Positions 5,531 to 51,381 of a stretch of DNA of 64,000 bases are shown in pieces (the first letter of the stretch is position 1; every line of letters starts with the position of its first letter). Both the position numbers and the translations under genes were made by a program. Source of the DNA: Candidatus Liptonbacteria bacterium (GTDB lineage: Bacteria > Patescibacteriota > Minisyncoccia > UBA6257 > 2-01-FULL-56-20); contig VGJV01000001.1 of the NCBI GenBank assembly GCA_016867315.1, forward strand, positions 34,863 to 98,862, read 5' to 3'. The notes beneath the pieces were generated by a model. It made no database searches and had not been told where the DNA came from. It saw only the letters and a list, made by a program, of their open reading frames with translations.

Positions 5531-6157
5531 CTACTCAGTAAAACGGAACGAGGAGAGAATTCCTTCGAGCGCCGCACTGTGCTTTTCTATCGCATTTCTT
5601 TGTCCCGCCACCTCCTCAGGCGTGGCATCATTTTTCCCATTCTGAATGTAGCCGCCATACCCCACGAGATGCCAGTATAGTTCGGACCGTATCACGAAGC
5701 AGGAATCGGCGTGAACCGTACGATACTCCCCTATTTCTCCTCTTGCCCCTCCCATCGCGGCATCCCCTTGCTTTGCCCCATACCACGTGGCTCCATTCAG
5801 ATCCTTAGGAAGCAACCTCTCTCCATATTCTTTTTTCAAACAGGCACCCGAGCCGGACGGAGCATTATCTATGCTTACGGAGAAGGTTGCGGCATCGAGA
5901 TAGGTTTCTTCCGCGCTCAATTCCGCGATTTTGGTAAGCTCATAATTGTAAAAGAATTCCTTTTCCACATTAGTATTCAGCCGATAGTTCGAAGGGTACC
6001 TGAATTCGAATCCGAATTGCGTATTCTTGTACACGTTCCAACCACCTCTCGCCACCTCCTCCGCCGGGATTGAAGGCTGGCCGGAAAGATAGAGTATCGA
6101 GCCGGCTCCCAATATCACAAAGGCGAAAATTATTGATAGCGCTTCTTGCTTTTTCAT
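5531..6157 (-). CDS. hypothetical membrane-anchored/secreted protein (YxNxxYGFExxYP motif family)
   Basis: N-terminal hydrophobic segment; motif GWNVYKNTQFGFEFRYP shared with ORFs 6952-8109 and 8121-9101. Confidence 0.55.
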   Translation of the reverse strand: MKKQEALSIIFAFVILGAGSILYLSGQPSIPAEEVARGGWNVYKNTQFGFEFRYPSNYRLNTNVEKEFFYNYELTKIAELSAEETYLDAATFSVSIDNAPSGSGACLKKEYGERLLPKDLNGATWYGAKQGDAAMGGARGEIGEYRTVHADSCFVIRSELYWHLVGYGGYIQNGKNDATPEEVAGQRNAIEKHSAALEGILSSFRFTE

Positions 6158-16593: not shown

Positions 16594-16715
16594 ATCCCGT
16601 TAGAGACAACTGGACAATGCTTATGGCAATTCTAATATTTTGGAAAAGAACGCCTATTATTTTAAATAAGTCGTTTTGTTACGGTTCCGCAAGCGGAACC
16701 TGCCTCTAACGGGAT
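16594..16715. repeat. MITE-like element copy A: 15-bp terminal inverted repeats ATCCCGTTAGAGACA / TGCCTCTAACGGGAT plus internal perfect palindrome GGTTCCGC-AA-GCGGAACC
   Basis: Fills the whole GT4-GT2 spacer; same TIRs and palindrome recur in opposite orientation at 51263-51381. Confidence 0.55.
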
Positions 16716-17427
16716 GAATATAAGCTTTATTGTGCCTGCATATAATGAAGAGAAATACATCGGGCCCTGTCTCGAGAGCATCTTTGCGCATACGGGAGAA
16801 GAAGTGCAAGAAATTCTCGTGATCAATAATGCTTCGACCGATCGCACCGCAGAAGTCGCCGGCAAATTCCCAAAGGTACGCGTCGTGCATGAACCTAAGA
16901 AGGGACTTACTTTTGCGCGCGAACGCGGGCTTCGGGAAGCTCAGGGAGAGTTTCTTGCCTACATTGATGCGGACACTCGTCTCCACGCAGGATGGCTTCC
17001 TATCGTAAAGGAAGAATTTTCCAAACGGAACGATCTCGTATGCCTCAGCGGGCCTTTCTCCTATTACGATCTCACGCCTTCTCAAAAATTCGCAGCCGAG
17101 ATGGGATGGAAAATCTTTGCTCCTCTTACTTATGCGATCGTAGGATATATGGTGCTCGGAGCCAATTTTATCGTGCGAAAAGACGCCCTTCTTCAAGCCG
17201 GGACATTCAATACTTCCGTCGCCTTCTATGGGGAAGATACGGATATCGCCCGCCGATTGAGCAAAGTAGGAACCGTGCTTTTCCGCATGAACTTCTTTAT
17301 CTTGGGGTCAGGACGCCGACTGCTTGCCGAAGGCTTGTTAAAAACATATGCCACCTATGCTGCTAACTTCATTTCGGAAGTCGCGTGGCACAAGCCCGTA
17401 ACAAAGCGTTATAAAGATATCCGATGA
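16714..17427 (+). CDS. glycosyltransferase family 2
   Basis: SFIVPAYNEE, DADT (DXD) motifs. Confidence 0.8.
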   Translation: MNISFIVPAYNEEKYIGPCLESIFAHTGEEVQEILVINNASTDRTAEVAGKFPKVRVVHEPKKGLTFARERGLREAQGEFLAYIDADTRLHAGWLPIVKEEFSKRNDLVCLSGPFSYYDLTPSQKFAAEMGWKIFAPLTYAIVGYMVLGANFIVRKDALLQAGTFNTSVAFYGEDTDIARRLSKVGTVLFRMNFFILGSGRRLLAEGLLKTYATYAANFISEVAWHKPVTKRYKDIR

Positions 17428-17984: not shown

Positions 17985-19301
17985 ATGTTCCTTCTCCTCA
18001 TAGGAGACATCGCGACGCTCTATATAAGTCTCGTGGCCACGCTTCTTATTCGTCACGGGGCGGCTTTCGGGCCGGAACTCTACGACCGGCATTTGGCACC
18101 GTTTTCCATAATTTTTGCTCTTTGGATACTGGTCTTCTATACCGCGGGACTTTATGACATCCGGCGGCTACGCAACAGCCTGGAATTTTTCAAAACGTTA
18201 TCGCTCGCCCTCGCGACGAACGCTCTTCTTACGGTTACTCTTTTCTATCTCGTGCCTTTCTTTGGGATCGCTCCCAAAACGAATCTTTTTATCTTCCTTG
18301 GCATCTTTACGGTGCTCGAAGTGACGTGGCGCCGATTTTGGAATTTGTATGCAGCGAAGGGAGAAGCGCCAAATAAAGTGGTACTTATCGGAGAAGGACA
18401 AAGTGCTCGAGAAATCGAAGAGATTATTTCTCACAATCCCCAACTCGGCTACTCTCTCGTTAAACATTTGCCTCCCACTCTTCCCACGGGGGTAACCCCG
18501 GGATTCCTCCGAGAGTCGCTCGCTGCCTCGGGGGGAAATTTGGTGGTAATAGATAGAAAACTTAAAAGCATTCCGACGCTGAATCGAGAGCTCTATGCCC
18601 TGCTCCGCACCGGCGTAGAAGTTAAAGATATTCCTTCTTTTTACGAATCGCTTTTTAAAAAAGTCCCTCTTCAAGAAATCGAGGAAGGTTGGATTCTAGA
18701 GAATATTGCCGATCAAACCCGGTTTTATGATCCTTTGAAGCGGGGTTTCGAATTTTGTGCGGCCCTGTTTCTTTTCATAGCCCTTCTGCCGCTCGAAATT
18801 CTCTTAGGACTTTTGGTGATTCTTACTTCTCGCGGGCCCGCTATTTATAAACAAGTACGCGTAGGGAAATATGGGGAGGAATTCACCCTTTATAAATTCC
18901 GCACCATGCGGCGGGATGCAGAACGACATGGGCCTCAGTGGTCGGGGCCGCAGGATGCTCGCGTAACCTTGGTTGGCAAGATTCTCCGCCACACACATCT
19001 CGATGAACTGCCTCAACTTTGGAACATACTTCGCGGCGACCTTTCTTTTGTAGGGCCCCGGCCGGAACGACCGGAATTTGTACGAGACCTCAAAGAAAAG
19101 GTTGCGTATTACGAAATCCGGCTCCTCGTGAAACCAGGAGTGACCGGGTGGGCACAAATCAATTATCGAAGCGATATCACCACGGAGGACGTAGCGGAGA
19201 AAATTAAATACGATATCTACTACGTGAAGAACCGGTCGCCTATTTTGGATATCGCGATTGTATTTCGCACATTAAAGACCTTATTTGTGACGCCGAAATG
19301 A
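17985..19301 (+). CDS. undecaprenyl-phosphate sugar phosphotransferase (WbaP/bacterial sugar transferase family)
   Basis: N-terminal TM block; C-terminal FRTMRRDAE...DELPQLWNILRGDLSFVGPRPERPEF signature. Confidence 0.85.
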   Translation: MFLLLIGDIATLYISLVATLLIRHGAAFGPELYDRHLAPFSIIFALWILVFYTAGLYDIRRLRNSLEFFKTLSLALATNALLTVTLFYLVPFFGIAPKTNLFIFLGIFTVLEVTWRRFWNLYAAKGEAPNKVVLIGEGQSAREIEEIISHNPQLGYSLVKHLPPTLPTGVTPGFLRESLAASGGNLVVIDRKLKSIPTLNRELYALLRTGVEVKDIPSFYESLFKKVPLQEIEEGWILENIADQTRFYDPLKRGFEFCAALFLFIALLPLEILLGLLVILTSRGPAIYKQVRVGKYGEEFTLYKFRTMRRDAERHGPQWSGPQDARVTLVGKILRHTHLDELPQLWNILRGDLSFVGPRPERPEFVRDLKEKVAYYEIRLLVKPGVTGWAQINYRSDITTEDVAEKIKYDIYYVKNRSPILDIAIVFRTLKTLFVTPK

Positions 19302-23135: not shown

Positions 23136-24167
23136 ATGACTACTGAACTACTAACTAACCGAAGGAGCAACATTAAAGCTATATCGAAGATACTGGAAGA
23201 AACAGGACATCAGCGGCGGCAGTTTTTGAGACATTTAAATCTGCGACACTTCCCCGACGAGCACTACCCTCTGATCAATGGGGTGGTCTCCGCGGGATTC
23301 GCGGCCGAGCCTTTTGCGGGGCTCGACACAGAAAAACAGGATGAGCGCGAAAGCCACCGAGCTGTTTCTGGCGAAGGCGACGCCATTGCCCAACAAGTGC
23401 TCCTCACTGAACTTTCGGCAGCGTATCCCGATGCCGAATTTCTCCTTGAGGAAGATACATCACCGCATGCGAAATGCTTACCTAAGCAAAATCCTGAGGG
23501 GATTCTCCAGGGTAGAAAGATCGTGGGCGATCCAATCGACAGTTCCACGCGCTTCGGCGGGGACATGAGCCAATGGTGCACTGCGGCGGGCATGCTTCAG
23601 GATGGTCACGTCGTGGGCGGGGCAATCTTTGCTCCCACGATGAATGGCGGCCTCCTGGTCACGAGCCACAAGGGCAAAGGAGTTGTTGTCGTTGAGAAAG
23701 GCGGGCAAAAAGTGTTGACGGATACGACCCCTATTCTTCCTCGAGAGGTGAAAAAGAGTGTCGTACTCCTCGGCGTGGACACCCTGCAGTATCCGGCAAT
23801 CTGCAACTTCATCCCTAAAGTCACAACTGCAGTGCGCGGGGTCTATACGAGTGGGTCCGGAATTCTGGGTCTTGCTTTGGTCGCCGCAGGACGAGCTCAA
23901 GCGATCTTCCAGACTCCGCAAAGGATCTGGGACATCATCCCGGGGATTTGCGCTCTGCGCGAAGCTGGACGCACGGTGCTCTTCTATCGTCGGGACCCAC
24001 AAACCGGATTGCCTACTGAAGTTGGGTTGGACTTCCAAGCATTCTGCTATGATCGCCCGAATCGATTGGGTATCATCGCAGGCGATATTATGCTCGTAGG
24101 TTATCTTGCTCAATTGCTTCAGGAAGCCGGGCCGCTACTCAAGGCAGACGAGAGTCTCAAAGATTAA
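23136..24167 (+). CDS. inositol monophosphatase/CysQ family phosphatase
   Basis: Metal site EEDxS (LLEEDTSPH), DPIDSS, WDIIPG motifs. Confidence 0.7.
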   Translation: MTTELLTNRRSNIKAISKILEETGHQRRQFLRHLNLRHFPDEHYPLINGVVSAGFAAEPFAGLDTEKQDERESHRAVSGEGDAIAQQVLLTELSAAYPDAEFLLEEDTSPHAKCLPKQNPEGILQGRKIVGDPIDSSTRFGGDMSQWCTAAGMLQDGHVVGGAIFAPTMNGGLLVTSHKGKGVVVVEKGGQKVLTDTTPILPREVKKSVVLLGVDTLQYPAICNFIPKVTTAVRGVYTSGSGILGLALVAAGRAQAIFQTPQRIWDIIPGICALREAGRTVLFYRRDPQTGLPTEVGLDFQAFCYDRPNRLGIIAGDIMLVGYLAQLLQEAGPLLKADESLKD

Positions 24168-24230: not shown

Positions 24231-24260
24231 GAACCGACTTACCCTCGGTTCTTTTCTTTT
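24231..24260. terminator. bidirectional intrinsic terminator between convergent IMPase-like and hddC-like genes
   Basis: GAACCGA-cttaccc-TCGGTTC followed by TTTTCTTTTT. Confidence 0.5.
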
Positions 24261-25003
24261 TAAGCCTTCTCTTCCACTTGAAGCTTCTTTATGTTCTCCT
24301 CTACTTCTTTCCACTTCTCGAGCGTATCAATTCCCTTCGAGTAGTCGCCACATTCGTAGCTGTAGAATTTGAGGTTTTTTGCCACGATGTCCGGCAGAAG
24401 TTTTTTGCCGAGGTCATATTTAGTATTTTCCGGCACGTATTTTAAAATTTCTTTCCGCATAATAAATACGCCGCGCATGCGGTAGGCGTTCGGGTAGACT
24501 GCGCTGTGCGGCTTTGTGTGAATCGCGACGTACTTCCCGTCCGCATCGAGTTCGGCTACGTCCGCATCGGCGTAATTCTGGGTTTTTTTCATACGCTGCA
24601 TGCCTAGCGCATCCGCGGGTTTCTTCGCCCAGCTCTCCACCATCTTCGTGTAGTCTACAAGTGAGAAGGTGTCGCCGTAGATAAAAAAGAACTCGTCATT
24701 TAATTGACGCTCAAATGCCTTGATCCCTCCGGCGGAGCCGAGTGGTTCCTTCTCCACAAAATAATTAATTTTCACTCCCCACTTCGAGCCGTCACCGAAA
24801 TAACTCGTGGTTACATCAGGGAGATATTGGAGCGTGAAAAAAAATTCTTTGACGCCGTGTTTTTTGAACTGCTCCACGTGCCACTCGAGCATCGGTTTTC
24901 CCAGAATGGGGATCATCACTTTGGGAATCGTGTCGGTGGTAGGGCGCAACCGAGTCCCCATGCCCCCCGCGGCTATAACCGCCTGTGTAATTCGATTTTG
25001 CAT
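24260..25003 (-). CDS. sugar-1-phosphate nucleotidylyltransferase (HddC-like; start moved to MQNRITQAV)
   Basis: AAGGMGTRLRP (GxGTRxxP) motif; located with gmhA/gmhB/hddA. Confidence 0.75.
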   Translation of the reverse strand: MQNRITQAVIAAGGMGTRLRPTTDTIPKVMIPILGKPMLEWHVEQFKKHGVKEFFFTLQYLPDVTTSYFGDGSKWGVKINYFVEKEPLGSAGGIKAFERQLNDEFFFIYGDTFSLVDYTKMVESWAKKPADALGMQRMKKTQNYADADVAELDADGKYVAIHTKPHSAVYPNAYRMRGVFIMRKEILKYVPENTKYDLGKKLLPDIVAKNLKFYSYECGDYSKGIDTLEKWKEVEENIKKLQVEEKA

Positions 25004-25124
25004 GCAATAAGCGTACAGCATTTTGACTTTATAAGGAAATATTGTAAAACATGCCCAGCTCAATGAAACCACGATGCATATTGGAATTGTTGGGCATTAA
25101 CCTACTAACCCAAGGAAATTAGCT

Positions 25125-26138
25125 ATGAAAGAGGTTCCGTTAATTACGGACGGAGTGCAGCTTGAGGAATGGTTCCATGCGGATCCCAATGTCGTCGCTC
25201 GCACCATCCGGGCGGATGTCTATGACCAAAGTCTTATCATTCGACGATGGCCAGGCAATGTTCCCACAGTGGCGAGTCTTAAAGAGACCTTGCCTAAAAC
25301 TATCAACCGATGGTGGCAGATTGGCCGAGAAGATGATGCGGCAGTGTGTCCGATCAAAACCAAGCCCCAAACCGTGCTTCGCAACATGTTTGTTTACCAT
25401 GCTTATCACACGCAGACGCAACCAGTGAATAAGGAGCAGCAGGTTCTGACCGAAGCCAAGGTGGGTGGTATTGAAATTCAGCTTTATCCCAGCTTCTTCG
25501 CTCATGAAGGCCAGAATCACTTCCTCATTCTTCCTAAAGAATGTTGGTCTCGCGCCACCACTCAAATGGCGGGCGGCCCGGAGACTCTCGCGGGTATTAT
25601 CAAGCTCGCTCGGGAAACGATGCGCGAGAAGTGAAACGGGGATGGGGAGTTCAGTCTGCAGGTGGGCATCCATGCCGCGCAGAACCTGGTGCACGCGCAT
25701 TTTCACGTGTACCGCAATTTGGGCGGACTGGCGGACTTTGGACCAGCACGGATCGATCTCTACAAGTCTATTGTGAGTCCCTCCCTCCACATCTCTGAGC
25801 GCAATGATCTCATTCTCGCGGCAGGAGGGCTGAGAACTGGTCAAGTGCTATTTCTCCCCACAGACACACGCAACCGACCCGAATTCGATGATGCGTTCGC
25901 TCGTGAGCTTTATGGAGTGACTGATGTTTACACCCGAAAACTCATGAGCGTGCAGAACAATCCGGTGGACTTTGCCTTCGAAATTTCGGTGCGTCATGGG
26001 CGGGTAGCATTCGGTGGGGCATATCCGGTTGTCGGCCCACTCGGGACGATGGAGTTTTTCGCACCGCTCATGCCGGAAGCGAAATACTTCAATATTGGTT
26101 GGCCGGAGGAAGAAACTCTGAAACTCTGGTCCAATTAA
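25125..26138 (+). pseudogene. HIT-superfamily (GalT/Apa2-like two-domain) gene interrupted by an in-frame TGA at 25632-25634
   Basis: ORFs 25125-25634 and 25662-26138 are in one frame; HIT motif VHAHFHVY lies 18 codons after the TGA, preceded by the GIHAAQ(N) pattern typical of HIT proteins. Confidence 0.5.
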
Positions 26139-26179: not shown

Positions 26180-26211
26180 GGGGACTGTTCGCCATTTGGC
26201 AGACAGTCCCC
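26180..26211. terminator. bidirectional intrinsic terminator between convergent HIT-like and gmhB genes
   Basis: GGGGACTGT-N14-ACAGTCCCC, A-run before and T-rich after. Confidence 0.5.
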
Positions 26212-26231: not shown

Positions 26232-26783
26232 CTACTTCGTGAACTCGAGAATTTTCGCGGCGGCGGCTTGCATGTCGGAAACAGCGTAATCAGGTTTCGC
26301 ATTCGGGAAAAACTTTTCATCTTCTTTCCCCCCTTCCCCTCCTTCAATCAGGATGGTCTTCATCCCTCCGCGCTTGCCGGTTTCTACATCGCGAAGCGAA
26401 TCTCCCACCATCCAGCTTTGCGAAAGGTCGATGCCAAATTTTACCGCAGCTTCTTGCACCATTCCCTGATCGGGCTTCCGACACGTACAGTGCTGAGGCT
26501 CCCTGAAACGGTGCGGACAGATAAAGGCTGCGTTAATTGTTGCGCCTTCAGCGGCGAATTTTTCCATAAGTACGCGATTAATTTCGTCGCCTTGCTCCCG
26601 GGTGATCTTGCCTTTCTCGATGATTGGCTGATTGGTCAATATGACGCAGAGAAATCCTGCGTCGTTCAGCTTCTTTACTCCTTCTATTGCGCCCGGCAGA
26701 ATCTTCAGTTGCTCGGGACTCGTGAGTTCCAGTACATATTCGATAAGAGTTCCATCTCGGTCCAGAAAAACTGCTTTTTTCAT
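26232..26783 (-). CDS. gmhB: D-glycero-D-manno-heptose 1,7-bisphosphate phosphatase (HAD-IIIA)
   Basis: FLDRDGTL, Zn-binding CPHRFREPQHCTCRKP, MVGDS motifs. Confidence 0.85.
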   Translation of the reverse strand: MKKAVFLDRDGTLIEYVLELTSPEQLKILPGAIEGVKKLNDAGFLCVILTNQPIIEKGKITREQGDEINRVLMEKFAAEGATINAAFICPHRFREPQHCTCRKPDQGMVQEAAVKFGIDLSQSWMVGDSLRDVETGKRGGMKTILIEGGEGGKEDEKFFPNAKPDYAVSDMQAAAAKILEFTK

Positions 26784-26871
26784 TAAAAAATTTCTAATAT
26801 CTAATTACTAATTCCTAACTAAATCCCAATTTCCAGAAATGCCCCTTAGAAATTAGGAATTAGAAATTTCT
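26784..26871. repeat. AT-rich intercistronic repeat element, copy Y (gmhA-gmhB spacer); related to 10924-11038
   Basis: Inverted repeat TAATTCCTAA/TTAGGAATTA plus shared blocks with copy X; both copies lie between co-directional minus-strand genes in the same orientation. Confidence 0.5.
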
Positions 26872-27480
26872 CTAGGCTTTCTGCACGCTCTCCCACTTGC
26901 CATCAATCTGCTTGAAATTGGGGTGACTTACGATCAAGTGCCAGACCACCGCTTGGAAACTTTCCGTGTGCGGAGTTACCGTTTCGGGATTCACTACCGG
27001 GACCACCACGCAGGCATCAGAAACAGTTTTCGTGTATCCCCCGTCGCGGCCTACTACTCCCATTATTTTTGCTCCTTTGGACTTTGCATATTTCAACGCT
27101 TCCACAATGTTCACGCTCACTTTCTTTTCGGCATTCCCTCCTCCCACCGAAAACACCATCACTCCATCTTTTTGAGAAAGCTTGCTGCCTTCGAGCCACT
27201 TCGCGAACACCGAATCCCAGCCGTCGTCGTTTACGCGGGCGGAAAATTCCGCCACGTTGTCTACGGGAGTGTAGGACTCGATACCCGCGATTTTTCGAAA
27301 ATCATTTACCGCGTGGCTCGCATGCCCCGCTCCCCCTCCTACGCCCAAAATAAAAAGTCGGCCGTGATTCGCACGGATGTCTTTCAAAATATCGATCATA
27401 CTTCCAATCGCGGAGTGATCAATACCATCAATGATTTGTTTCGCTTCCGCGAAATAGGCTTCGATGTAGGGCTTATGCAT
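26872..27480 (-). CDS. gmhA: sedoheptulose-7-phosphate isomerase (SIS domain)
   Basis: SIS motifs LGVGGGAGHASH, VFSVGGG; 202 aa. Confidence 0.85.
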   Translation of the reverse strand: MHKPYIEAYFAEAKQIIDGIDHSAIGSMIDILKDIRANHGRLFILGVGGGAGHASHAVNDFRKIAGIESYTPVDNVAEFSARVNDDGWDSVFAKWLEGSKLSQKDGVMVFSVGGGNAEKKVSVNIVEALKYAKSKGAKIMGVVGRDGGYTKTVSDACVVVPVVNPETVTPHTESFQAVVWHLIVSHPNFKQIDGKWESVQKA

Positions 27481-31427: not shown

Positions 31428-32414
31428 TTAGAGATCTACCAGCACCTTAGAGCCCTCAAAGTCGAACCGATAACTCATTTCTCGCAAACCAAATTGCTTC
31501 ATCGCTGCCCGAAATTCCCTGTGCTTCTCCGGTACATAGAAAGTGAAAAATCCTCCCCCTCCCGCACCAGAGATTTTCCCCCCCAGCGCTCCCGCAGCTT
31601 TCCCCGCGTCGTATATTTTATCGAATTCCGGATTTGAAACTTTGCTTGACGTGCGCTTTTTGTGCTGCCAGTGTGCATCAAAGAGCTTCCCCACTTCGTC
31701 TACATCGTCCGACTCCATAGCTTCCAGTATTTGCTGGCCAATTTCTTTTATATAATGCATGCTCTCAATCACATCCTTCGCTTCTTCCTTCATCCCCTTC
31801 GATTGCTCGGCAAGCACTACATCCGCACTGCGCTTCACTCCCGTGAAAAACATAAGCATGTTTCGATTCAATGTATCCGCGGTAATTCGCGAAACATTCG
31901 CCTTGCGCACTTTCACGCTGCCGTCTTTCGCAATATCTAATACTGTAAGTCCTCCGAATGCCGCCATATAGGGGTCCTGCTTTCCTATCGGCCGGCCCAT
32001 TACCTTATTCTCAATCGTAAAATCTTCTTCTGCGAGCGTTTCCTGAGGAACATACTCCCGCTTCAATGTGTGTAAGGCGTGGAGTACCGCCACCGCAAAA
32101 CAACTCGAGGAGCCAAGTCCCGTCCCCGCGGAGACATCCGCCACCGTCGAAATTTCGATCTGCTTTTCGATACCTATAAGTCGCAAAATTTCCCGGAAGA
32201 GGCCATGTTTCACTTCGTTTATGCTTGCGACGTATTCCGCCTCGCTGTATTTCAGCCGAATCAGATCATCTTCCATCGGGCGGTTTACGCTCGCGAACAT
32301 ATATTTGTCGATTCCCGCGGAGAAAATAAACCCGCCGTGTTTCTCATAGTATGACGGCAAGTCCGTTCCTCCTCCTCCTAAGGTTACCCGAAATGGGGTG
32401 CGTGTAATGATCAT
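31428..32414 (-). CDS. hddA: GHMP kinase, D-glycero-alpha-D-manno-heptose 7-phosphate kinase-like
   Basis: GHMP motif SAGTGLGSSS, N-terminal TPFRVTLGGGGTD. Confidence 0.7.
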   Translation of the reverse strand: MIITRTPFRVTLGGGGTDLPSYYEKHGGFIFSAGIDKYMFASVNRPMEDDLIRLKYSEAEYVASINEVKHGLFREILRLIGIEKQIEISTVADVSAGTGLGSSSCFAVAVLHALHTLKREYVPQETLAEEDFTIENKVMGRPIGKQDPYMAAFGGLTVLDIAKDGSVKVRKANVSRITADTLNRNMLMFFTGVKRSADVVLAEQSKGMKEEAKDVIESMHYIKEIGQQILEAMESDDVDEVGKLFDAHWQHKKRTSSKVSNPEFDKIYDAGKAAGALGGKISGAGGGGFFTFYVPEKHREFRAAMKQFGLREMSYRFDFEGSKVLVDL

Positions 32415-50265: not shown

Positions 50266-51264
50266 TTAGAGAGTAGCTCCTACCGCTTTACAGTCTGCTT
50301 CCACCATAATGCGTACGAGTTCCGGAAACTTTGTTGTTGCTTCCCACTTAAGTTTTTCTTTGGCCTTCTTCGTATCTGCAATAAGATCATCTACTTCCGT
50401 GGGACGGAGATAGCGAGGATCAAACTCCACGTACTTTTTCCAGTCTCCTAAGCCTGCTACCTTAAACGCTTCGGCTACAAATTCTTCTACGGAGTGAGAC
50501 TCCCCTGTCCCGATTACATAGTCTTCGGGCTTTTCCTGCTGGAGCATTTGCCACATCGCTTCGCAATATTCTGGCGCATATCCCCAATCTCGTTTCGCCT
50601 CGAGATTTCCCAAATAAAGTTTTTTCTCGAGGCCGGCTTTGATGCGCGCTACGCCGCGAGAAATTTTCCTCGTCACAAACGTTTCGCCTCGGCGGGGCGA
50701 TTCATGATTGAAGAGAATTCCATTCACTGCAAAAAGCCCATACGCCTCCCGATAATTCCGAGTCATGTGATAGGCGAACACCTTCGCGGCCGCATAAGGA
50801 CTCCGAGGATAAAAAGGGGTATTTTCGCTTTGAGGAGGAGGGGTGGCTCCAAACATTTCCGAGCTCGATGCCTGATAAAACCTCACTTTCTTTTTGGTCT
50901 CTTTCTCGTAATCCTTGATGGCTTCGAGTATCCGAAGCGCACCGAGGCCCACAATCTCCGCGGTATACTCCGGAATATCGAAGGATACGCGCACGTGCGA
51001 TTGTGCGCCCAAGTTATAAAATTCATCGGGAGCTACTTCATACAAGAGCTTCCGAACCGTGTTCGCATCCGACAAGTCTCCATAATGCAAAATAAAATTT
51101 TTATGCTCCACGTGCGGATCTTGATAAATATGATCTATCCGCGAGGTATTGAAGGTCGAAGCGCGCCGAATTACCCCGTGTACTTCATACCCTTTCTTTA
51201 ATAAAATTTCGGCCAAGTAACTTCCATCCTGACCCGTGACACCGGTAAGCAATGCTTTTTTCAT
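50266..51264 (-). CDS. gmd: GDP-mannose 4,6-dehydratase
   Basis: [19 protein letters not shown]-terminus, [22 protein letters not shown] motifs. Confidence 0.9.
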
Positions 51265-51381
51265 CCCGTTAGAGACAGGTTCCGCCCGCGGAACCGTAGT
51301 AATAAGGGTTTACTGTAAAAAAACATATTTTTACAAAACATTGTAATGACATGAAATTTGATCTGGTGTCTCTCACGGGAT
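51263..51381. repeat. MITE-like element copy B (inverted relative to copy A): ATCCCGTTAGAGACA + GGTTCCGC-CC-GCGGAACC ... TGTCTCTCACGGGAT
   Basis: Same 15-bp TIR (one mismatch in right TIR) and same 8-bp-arm palindrome as 16594-16715; abuts the gmd start codon. Confidence 0.55.

Follow-up and report, generated by a model that had tools for sequence, protein, structure and literature searches.

A single gene of the HIT superfamily, broken by an in-frame TGA, underlies the two hypothetical proteins MBM3256776.1 and MBM3256777.1, and their annotation should be corrected to one disrupted gene. We consider it probable that the stop is a real nonsense mutation, that the gene has been inactivated by it and that it is now a young pseudogene. 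The coordinates of the gene and of the features around it in the window, which is the whole stretch of DNA that was analysed (64 kb), are presented in Table 1.

Table 1. Features of the HIT-like gene and of its surroundings; positions are those of the window unless a related locus is named.
Feature	Position	Strand	Remarks
WbaP-like transferase	17985-19301		followed by epimerase, Wzx flippase, GT2
IMPase-like protein	23136-24167		
HddC-like NTP_transferase	24260-25021	-	transcribed away from the HIT-like gene
Degraded sigma-70-type promoter of the HIT-like gene (putative)	25023..25050	+	TTGACT, 16 nt, TAAAAC
5'-UTR hairpin/block (predicted)	25058..25095	+	GCUCAAUGA..CC...GG..UUGUUGGGC; just downstream of the -10 box
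HIT-like gene, 5' part	25125..25631	+	codons 1-169; N-terminal extension, then the initial strands and the long helix of HIT repeat 1
Premature in-frame TGA	25632..25634	+	codon 170; TGA in every recovered copy of the locus
HIT-like gene, 3' part	25635..26138	+	codons 171-337 and TAA; remainder of HIT repeat 1 and entire repeat 2
GC-rich hairpin with T-run	26180..26211	.	GGGGACTGT...ACAGTCCCC; between the convergent HIT-like and HAD genes
GmhB-like HAD (HAD1)	26232-26783		convergent with the HIT-like gene
GmhA-like SIS	26872-27480		followed by SDR, GFO/IDH/MocA oxidoreductase, UDP-glucose-dehydrogenase-like protein, transaldolase
GHMP (HddA-like) kinase	31428-32414		with several further glycosyltransferases
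HAD2	L006 7565-8131; L001 4706-5266		absent from the window

The 5' ORF (25125-25634) starts with an ATG and its 169-aa product is identical to the database protein P0002 (MBM3256776.1). Past the TGA the frame stays open to the TAA at 26136-26138, and within it annotators have called a 158-aa ORF (25662-26138), which starts with the GTG at 25662, 27 nt past the stop, and whose product is identical to P0003 (MBM3256777.1). The spacer between TGA and GTG comprises nine sense codons (NGDGEFSLQ) and the read-through product has 337 aa. The arrangement of two ORFs in one frame, split by a TGA and nine codons, is thus confirmed from the sequence as it had been described in the original prediction; the lengths are 169 aa before and 167 aa after the stop (about 170 and 140 aa were given there). 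Also, the HIT signature had been placed 18 codons past the stop: GIHAAQNLVHAHFHVY lies at 11 codons (25665) and HAHFH at 20 (25692-25706). The 5' part carries the conserved Cys (CPIK), a conserved His (NHFLILP) and the CW motif. In the 1,014 nt of the gene there is only one disabling lesion. Across the 64 kb, the HIT-like gene is the only place where a TGA on the coding strand lies between two long ORFs of the same frame, the remaining TGA-separated same-frame pairs being antisense to real genes.

Homologues run through the position of the stop without interruption. Only one relative, P0001 (336 aa, 56% identity, 98% query coverage), emerged from 5.8 billion protein clusters searched by word index; it comes from the Logan assembly of SRR32573210. 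The BLASTP alignment of the two proteins is ungapped over query residues 103-248, stop included, and the TGA codon aligns with Phe171 (TTT) of P0001: the window reads ...TMREK*NGDGEFSLQVG where P0001 reads ...TIDEKFGGNGQVSWQVG, and the corresponding DNA is aag-TGA-aac-ggg in the window and aag-TTT-ggg-ggt in the locus of P0001 (L001). A small indel, with about 3 residues missing at REK*NGDG, had been suspected; at the level of both protein and DNA, the region of the stop is collinear with P0001/L001 and the missing residues are therefore unsupported, the length of this loop being variable across the family, and the indel reading was rejected. HMMER, run exhaustively over 1.84 billion representatives, returned 114 hits, P0002 and P0003 among them, and all full-length homologues (~270-340 aa) are continuous through the stop position. 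In the alignment of 47 family sequences the stop column falls in a loop which varies both in length and in sequence.

No homologue that is naturally two genes at this position was found among the 114 HMMER representatives and the short entries inspected. Three short entries begin close to the split: P0110 is truncated where its contig ends, the start of the intact gene P0041 has been miscalled, and P0087 is a separate nonsense lesion at another site. In the last of these (locus L009, Logan SRR22387835, a single contig only) an in-frame TAG at 2896-2898 splits a family member into ORFs of 93 aa and 170 aa; it stands where the CW motif has its near-invariant Trp, ~30 residues upstream of the site of the stop in the window, and a TGG-to-TAG change is its likeliest origin. 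The uninterrupted homologues bear out the view that one HIT-superfamily gene has been broken, by a TGA inside its first HIT repeat. Searches for related loci in metagenome and genome contig collections, which evidently do not hold this population, found none, and a pattern of the exact flanks with NNN at the stop had no match in those two collections, from which the window's own JGI contigs are absent too.

Concerning the protein family, HAHFHVY at 25692-25712 is an H-phi-H-phi-H-phi-phi triad motif, and its histidines (H191, H193 and H195) vary little or not at all across the 47-sequence alignment. On its own, the read-through protein of the window matches PF01230 with an E-value of 0.047 and 14.8 bits, below the cut-off of 21.5 bits, over residues 131-195, which span the stop; 31 of the 47 family members match this model (best E 5e-6). 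The profile of the family matches bacterial HIT proteins of the PDB with an E-value of 6.6e-9, from the conserved Cys through HxHxH. The AlphaFold2 model of P0001, based on the 47-sequence alignment, is confident, with a pLDDT of 88 and a pTM of 0.89, and contains the HIT alpha+beta fold, with two HIT-like repeats in one polypeptide. Its structural matches (the two values of each match in brackets) are Arabidopsis ADP-glucose phosphorylase 1z84 (19.8; 247), E. coli GalT 1gup (18.6; 253), DUF4931 4qvu (13.3; 192), Apa2 4i5t (10.7; 201) and single-domain HITs (about 10; about 95). Foldseek agrees, with an E-value of 8e-9 between the model and 1z84. A GalT/Apa2-like architecture of two halves had been proposed for the gene, and the matches of the model to 1z84, 1gup and Apa2 4i5t support it. 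In this model the stop falls at the end of a long helix (153-171), ahead of the strand (175-181) which leads into HxHxH.

By its modelled structure the family would belong to the GalT branch of the HIT superfamily. The Pfam models of the N- and C-terminal GalT domains match neither the window protein nor any of the 47 members (E <= 0.1), and the third position of the active-site motif is His in the window (HAHFH), in P0001 (HPHGH) and family-wide, HxHxQ being absent. Because of the HxHxH motif and the lack of GalT sequence matches, the family is a distinct, undescribed subfamily, so far seen in CPR bacteria. ADP-glucose phosphorylase (At5g18200; 1z84, 2h39) is ~14% identical and carries HxHxQ, whereas the window family has HxHxH, is found in CPR bacteria within a heptose-type glycan cluster and has no Pfam GalT-domain match. 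In GalT (E. coli 1gup, 1hxq; human 5in3) the third motif residue is Gln and not His, the second Cys of CxxC is not shared by all members, and there is no significant sequence match. HINT and Fhit (PF01230) share with the family the H-phi-H-phi-H-phi-phi motif and a profile match over the Cys...H-phi-H-phi-H region; unlike their homodimers, the window protein is about twice as long and has a degenerate second repeat fused in cis. DUF4931 (4qvu) and the Ap4A phosphorylase Apa2 (4i5t) show weaker similarity and are found in other genomic contexts. In the databases the members are labelled 'hypothetical protein' of Candidatus Liptonbacteria or Minisyncoccia, with one JGI entry as 'Ap4A HIT family hydrolase', and we found no literature on the HIT-like family, including a GDP-heptose/histidine-triad phosphorylase, or on pseudogenes of Liptonbacteria. 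The wider value of the locus is modest and lies in this family of ~110 representative GalT-fold, HxHxH-type enzymes of Liptonbacteria and Minisyncoccia, for which there is no Pfam model and whose genes adjoin that of a sugar-1-phosphate nucleotidyltransferase in surface-glycan clusters of the heptose type.

The HIT-like gene is located within a surface-glycan cluster of the GDP-heptose type (Table 1), in which GmhA-, GmhB-, HddA- and HddC-like genes are found, in agreement with the GDP-heptose neighbourhood originally described. The order GT2, NTP_transferase (-), HIT-like (+) and HAD (-) is common to the window, L001 and L006 (Liptonbacteria, GCA_016190325.1), and the last of these follows the window over a longer range, from Wzx through SIS, SDR, GFO, UDPG-DH, TAL and GHMP. 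The NTP_transferase also adjoins the family gene in L009 and L013, which makes it linked in all five loci with readable context. By analogy with ADP-glucose phosphorylase and GalT the enzyme would transfer the nucleotidyl group of a nucleotide-sugar, or phosphorolyse it, through a covalent His-NMP on the middle His of HxHxH. The GmhA-, HddA-, GmhB- and HddC-like genes nearby probably supply its substrate, either the GDP-heptose itself or a compound derived from it. The position of the IMPase/CysQ-like phosphatase of the cluster (343 aa) is conserved in L006; L001 has instead a 272-aa protein without a Pfam hit.

Several independent signs of decay, each of them weak individually, favour a recent pseudogene, which had been one of the options of the original prediction. 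A point mutation would have created the premature TGA at codon 170, and normal termination would leave a 169-aa fragment without the catalytic histidines and the whole second repeat, which would thus inactivate the enzyme. The TGA interrupts repeat 1 before HxHxH is reached, rather than falling at a domain boundary.

The first of the signs is found in the promoter. The orthologous promoters match 11 of 12 consensus positions (TTGACA-16-TACAAT in L001 and TTGACA-17-TAGAAT in L006), whereas the -10 box of the window has lost the T at position 6, which is invariant in the relatives, and the promoter scan does not call the site; the argument concerns one base and the consensus used is of the E. 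coli type. Downstream of the promoter, a block of ~40 nt (CAGCTCAATGAAACCA-N11-GGAATTGTTGGGC) hardly varies between the window (25056-25095), L001 (about 2937-2976) and L006 (about 5926-5965), though the encoded proteins are only 38-56% identical. RNAalifold gives 11 pairs on this block, all invariant and with no covariation, and the block may be a regulatory element of the 5'-UTR or an operator.

The second sign is the absence of HAD2, a second HAD-IIIA phosphatase of ~187 aa and ~40% identical to HAD1, which in both relatives lies between HAD1 and SIS. Only 88 bp separate HAD1 and SIS in the window (26784-26871), and no HAD2 is found anywhere in the 64 kb; HAD1 is kept, with 77% identity. 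HAD2 and the HIT-like gene may have been lost jointly, which hints at a shared role of the two in one dispensable branch of the pathway, a lead on the biosynthesis of cell-surface glycans in CPR bacteria.

Thirdly, sequence change in the gene has outpaced that in its neighbours. With L006 as outgroup, the flanking GT2, NTP_transferase and HAD1 genes have 32 unique substitutions in the window vs 54 in L001, and the HIT-like gene has 32 vs 22; the contrast of rates is modest (Fisher p = 0.015) and is based on a single outgroup. In a relative-rate test within the family alone, the window was faster than P0001 with nine of ten outgroups, significantly so for only some of them. Five residues conserved in the family are lost in the window alone, including the Gly of the S-x-Q-G motif. 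The fourth sign is the disruption in L009, an independent TAG in a homologue, by which the family is dispensable elsewhere. These four independent observations (promoter lesion, loss of HAD2, rise in rate and L009) would point to decay.

With neither a further stop nor a frameshift in the gene, the lesion is placed as young. The window protein retains every catalytic and putative metal-binding residue, and with a single disabling lesion and these key residues intact the loss of function is unproven. CPR genomes are compact and dead genes tend to be deleted from them; this purging, together with the fixation of the TGA allele in all samples, counts against a pseudogene. The stop itself is an ordinary event, a common kind of lesion in an accessory gene of a glycan cluster.

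The alternative which survives best, and which we still regard as unlikely, is that the gene functions by readthrough: a near-cognate tRNA (e.g. Trp) would decode the UGA and give the full 337-aa enzyme, either as a leak or as a device for low expression. UGA is the leakiest of the bacterial stops, and UGA followed by A, as in the window, is not a strong terminator. The codon falls in a variable surface loop, which should tolerate whatever residue is inserted, both halves are intact in other respects (HAHFH, the conserved Cys and His, the CW motif), and all samples carry the allele. Against this, the RNA past the stop (25620-25700 folded) is no more structured than shuffled sequences (z = -0.27) and thus offers no stimulatory structure, no RNA family is matched, no other gene in the window needs readthrough and TGA terminates 11 others; the damaged promoter, the missing HAD2 and the raised rate of change speak for relaxed selection, and no relevant literature report on readthrough in Parcubacteria was found. 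Programmed readthrough, as it had been put forward, is left with a small probability and no positive evidence. It is quite improbable that the UGA is read through at a useful rate, with the stop setting the dosage of an enzyme of an undescribed, CPR-specific, GalT-like HIT family whose substrates would be nucleotide sugars of the GDP-heptose type and whose gene is linked to the NTP_transferase in five loci.

A functional split enzyme, in which the 169-aa N-fragment associates non-covalently with a C-fragment re-initiated at the GTG at 25662 or nearby, seems highly doubtful. The short distance from the stop to this GTG makes termination and re-initiation conceivable, and HIT proteins are natural dimers of half-units while GalT-like proteins are fused dimers, which would fit an association of fragments. 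The break, however, lies within repeat 1 and not between the repeats, a product started at the GTG would be missing most of the strand ahead of the catalytic motif, and the inspected short homologues are accounted for by a contig end (P0110), a miscalled start (P0041) and another nonsense allele (P0087). Evidence from ribosome-binding sites is uninformative on re-initiation because the genome is poor in Shine-Dalgarno motifs.

That the TGA is an error of sequencing or assembly, with a sense codon in the true genome, had also been considered and is very unlikely because the same allele is found in several samples and by several assemblers. A difference of one or two bases would restore a sense codon. 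Contigs of the Logan assemblies SRR16108668 and SRR16108673 and of JGI 3300020198 are, however, 100% identical to the window over 4-5 kb, a contig of JGI 3300020220 has the TGA despite 2 SNPs relative to the window, and the deposited NCBI MAG contains the same two ORFs (FJY98_00385/00390). The exact 169-aa product is encoded by twelve contigs, and none of the 5.8 billion clusters searched contains a near-identical protein that is intact. The TGA allele is fixed in the sampled population, where the samples are near-clonal and maybe not independent populations, and where the SRA runs may share reads with the JGI metagenomes. The stop and its authenticity, the standard code, the fold and family of the protein and the conserved synteny are shown; the loss of function and the enzymatic activity are inferred.

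Recoding of the TGA, as selenocysteine or under an alternative genetic code (table 4 or 25), is extremely unlikely: some CPR lineages (Gracilibacteria, Absconditabacteria) decode UGA as Gly, which would suit the G-rich loop, but the source is labelled Candidatus Liptonbacteria and is neither of these, TGA terminates 11 of the 58 large ORFs of the window (five in ATGA stop/start overlaps, and the WbaP-like gene among the 11, as the original prediction of a genuine stop elsewhere had it), no further in-frame TGA occurs on any coding strand of the window, no SECIS-like hairpin and no Rfam hit at gathering or permissive thresholds was found at the locus, where the fold is as weak as given above, and the aligned residue of P0001 is Phe rather than Cys. 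The authentic allele, the standard code and the absence of a recoding signal thus make a sequencing error, selenocysteine and a reassigned code unlikely alike.

Other features of the window were also recorded. The GC-rich hairpin between the convergent HIT-like and HAD genes has equivalents in the same place in L006, where the scan calls it, and in L001; it is likely a bidirectional terminator, judging from its sequence, and the scan does not call it in the window because its loop exceeds 8 nt. SD-like motifs precede only 6 of the 52 crudely called gene starts and the upstream regions are mostly A/T-rich, which suggests largely SD-independent initiation in this Liptonbacteria genome. An intergenic element of ~120 nt, without an Rfam match, is present in two copies, 16594-16713 (+) and 51265-51381 (-), which share a 21-mer (2 hits vs 0 expected). 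The copies abut the ATG of the genes 16714-17427 and 50266-51264, respectively. The ends of the element (ATCCCGTkAGAGACA and TGyCTCTAACGGG) are mutual inverted repeats, and it contains an internal hairpin, GGTTCCGC..GCGGAACC.
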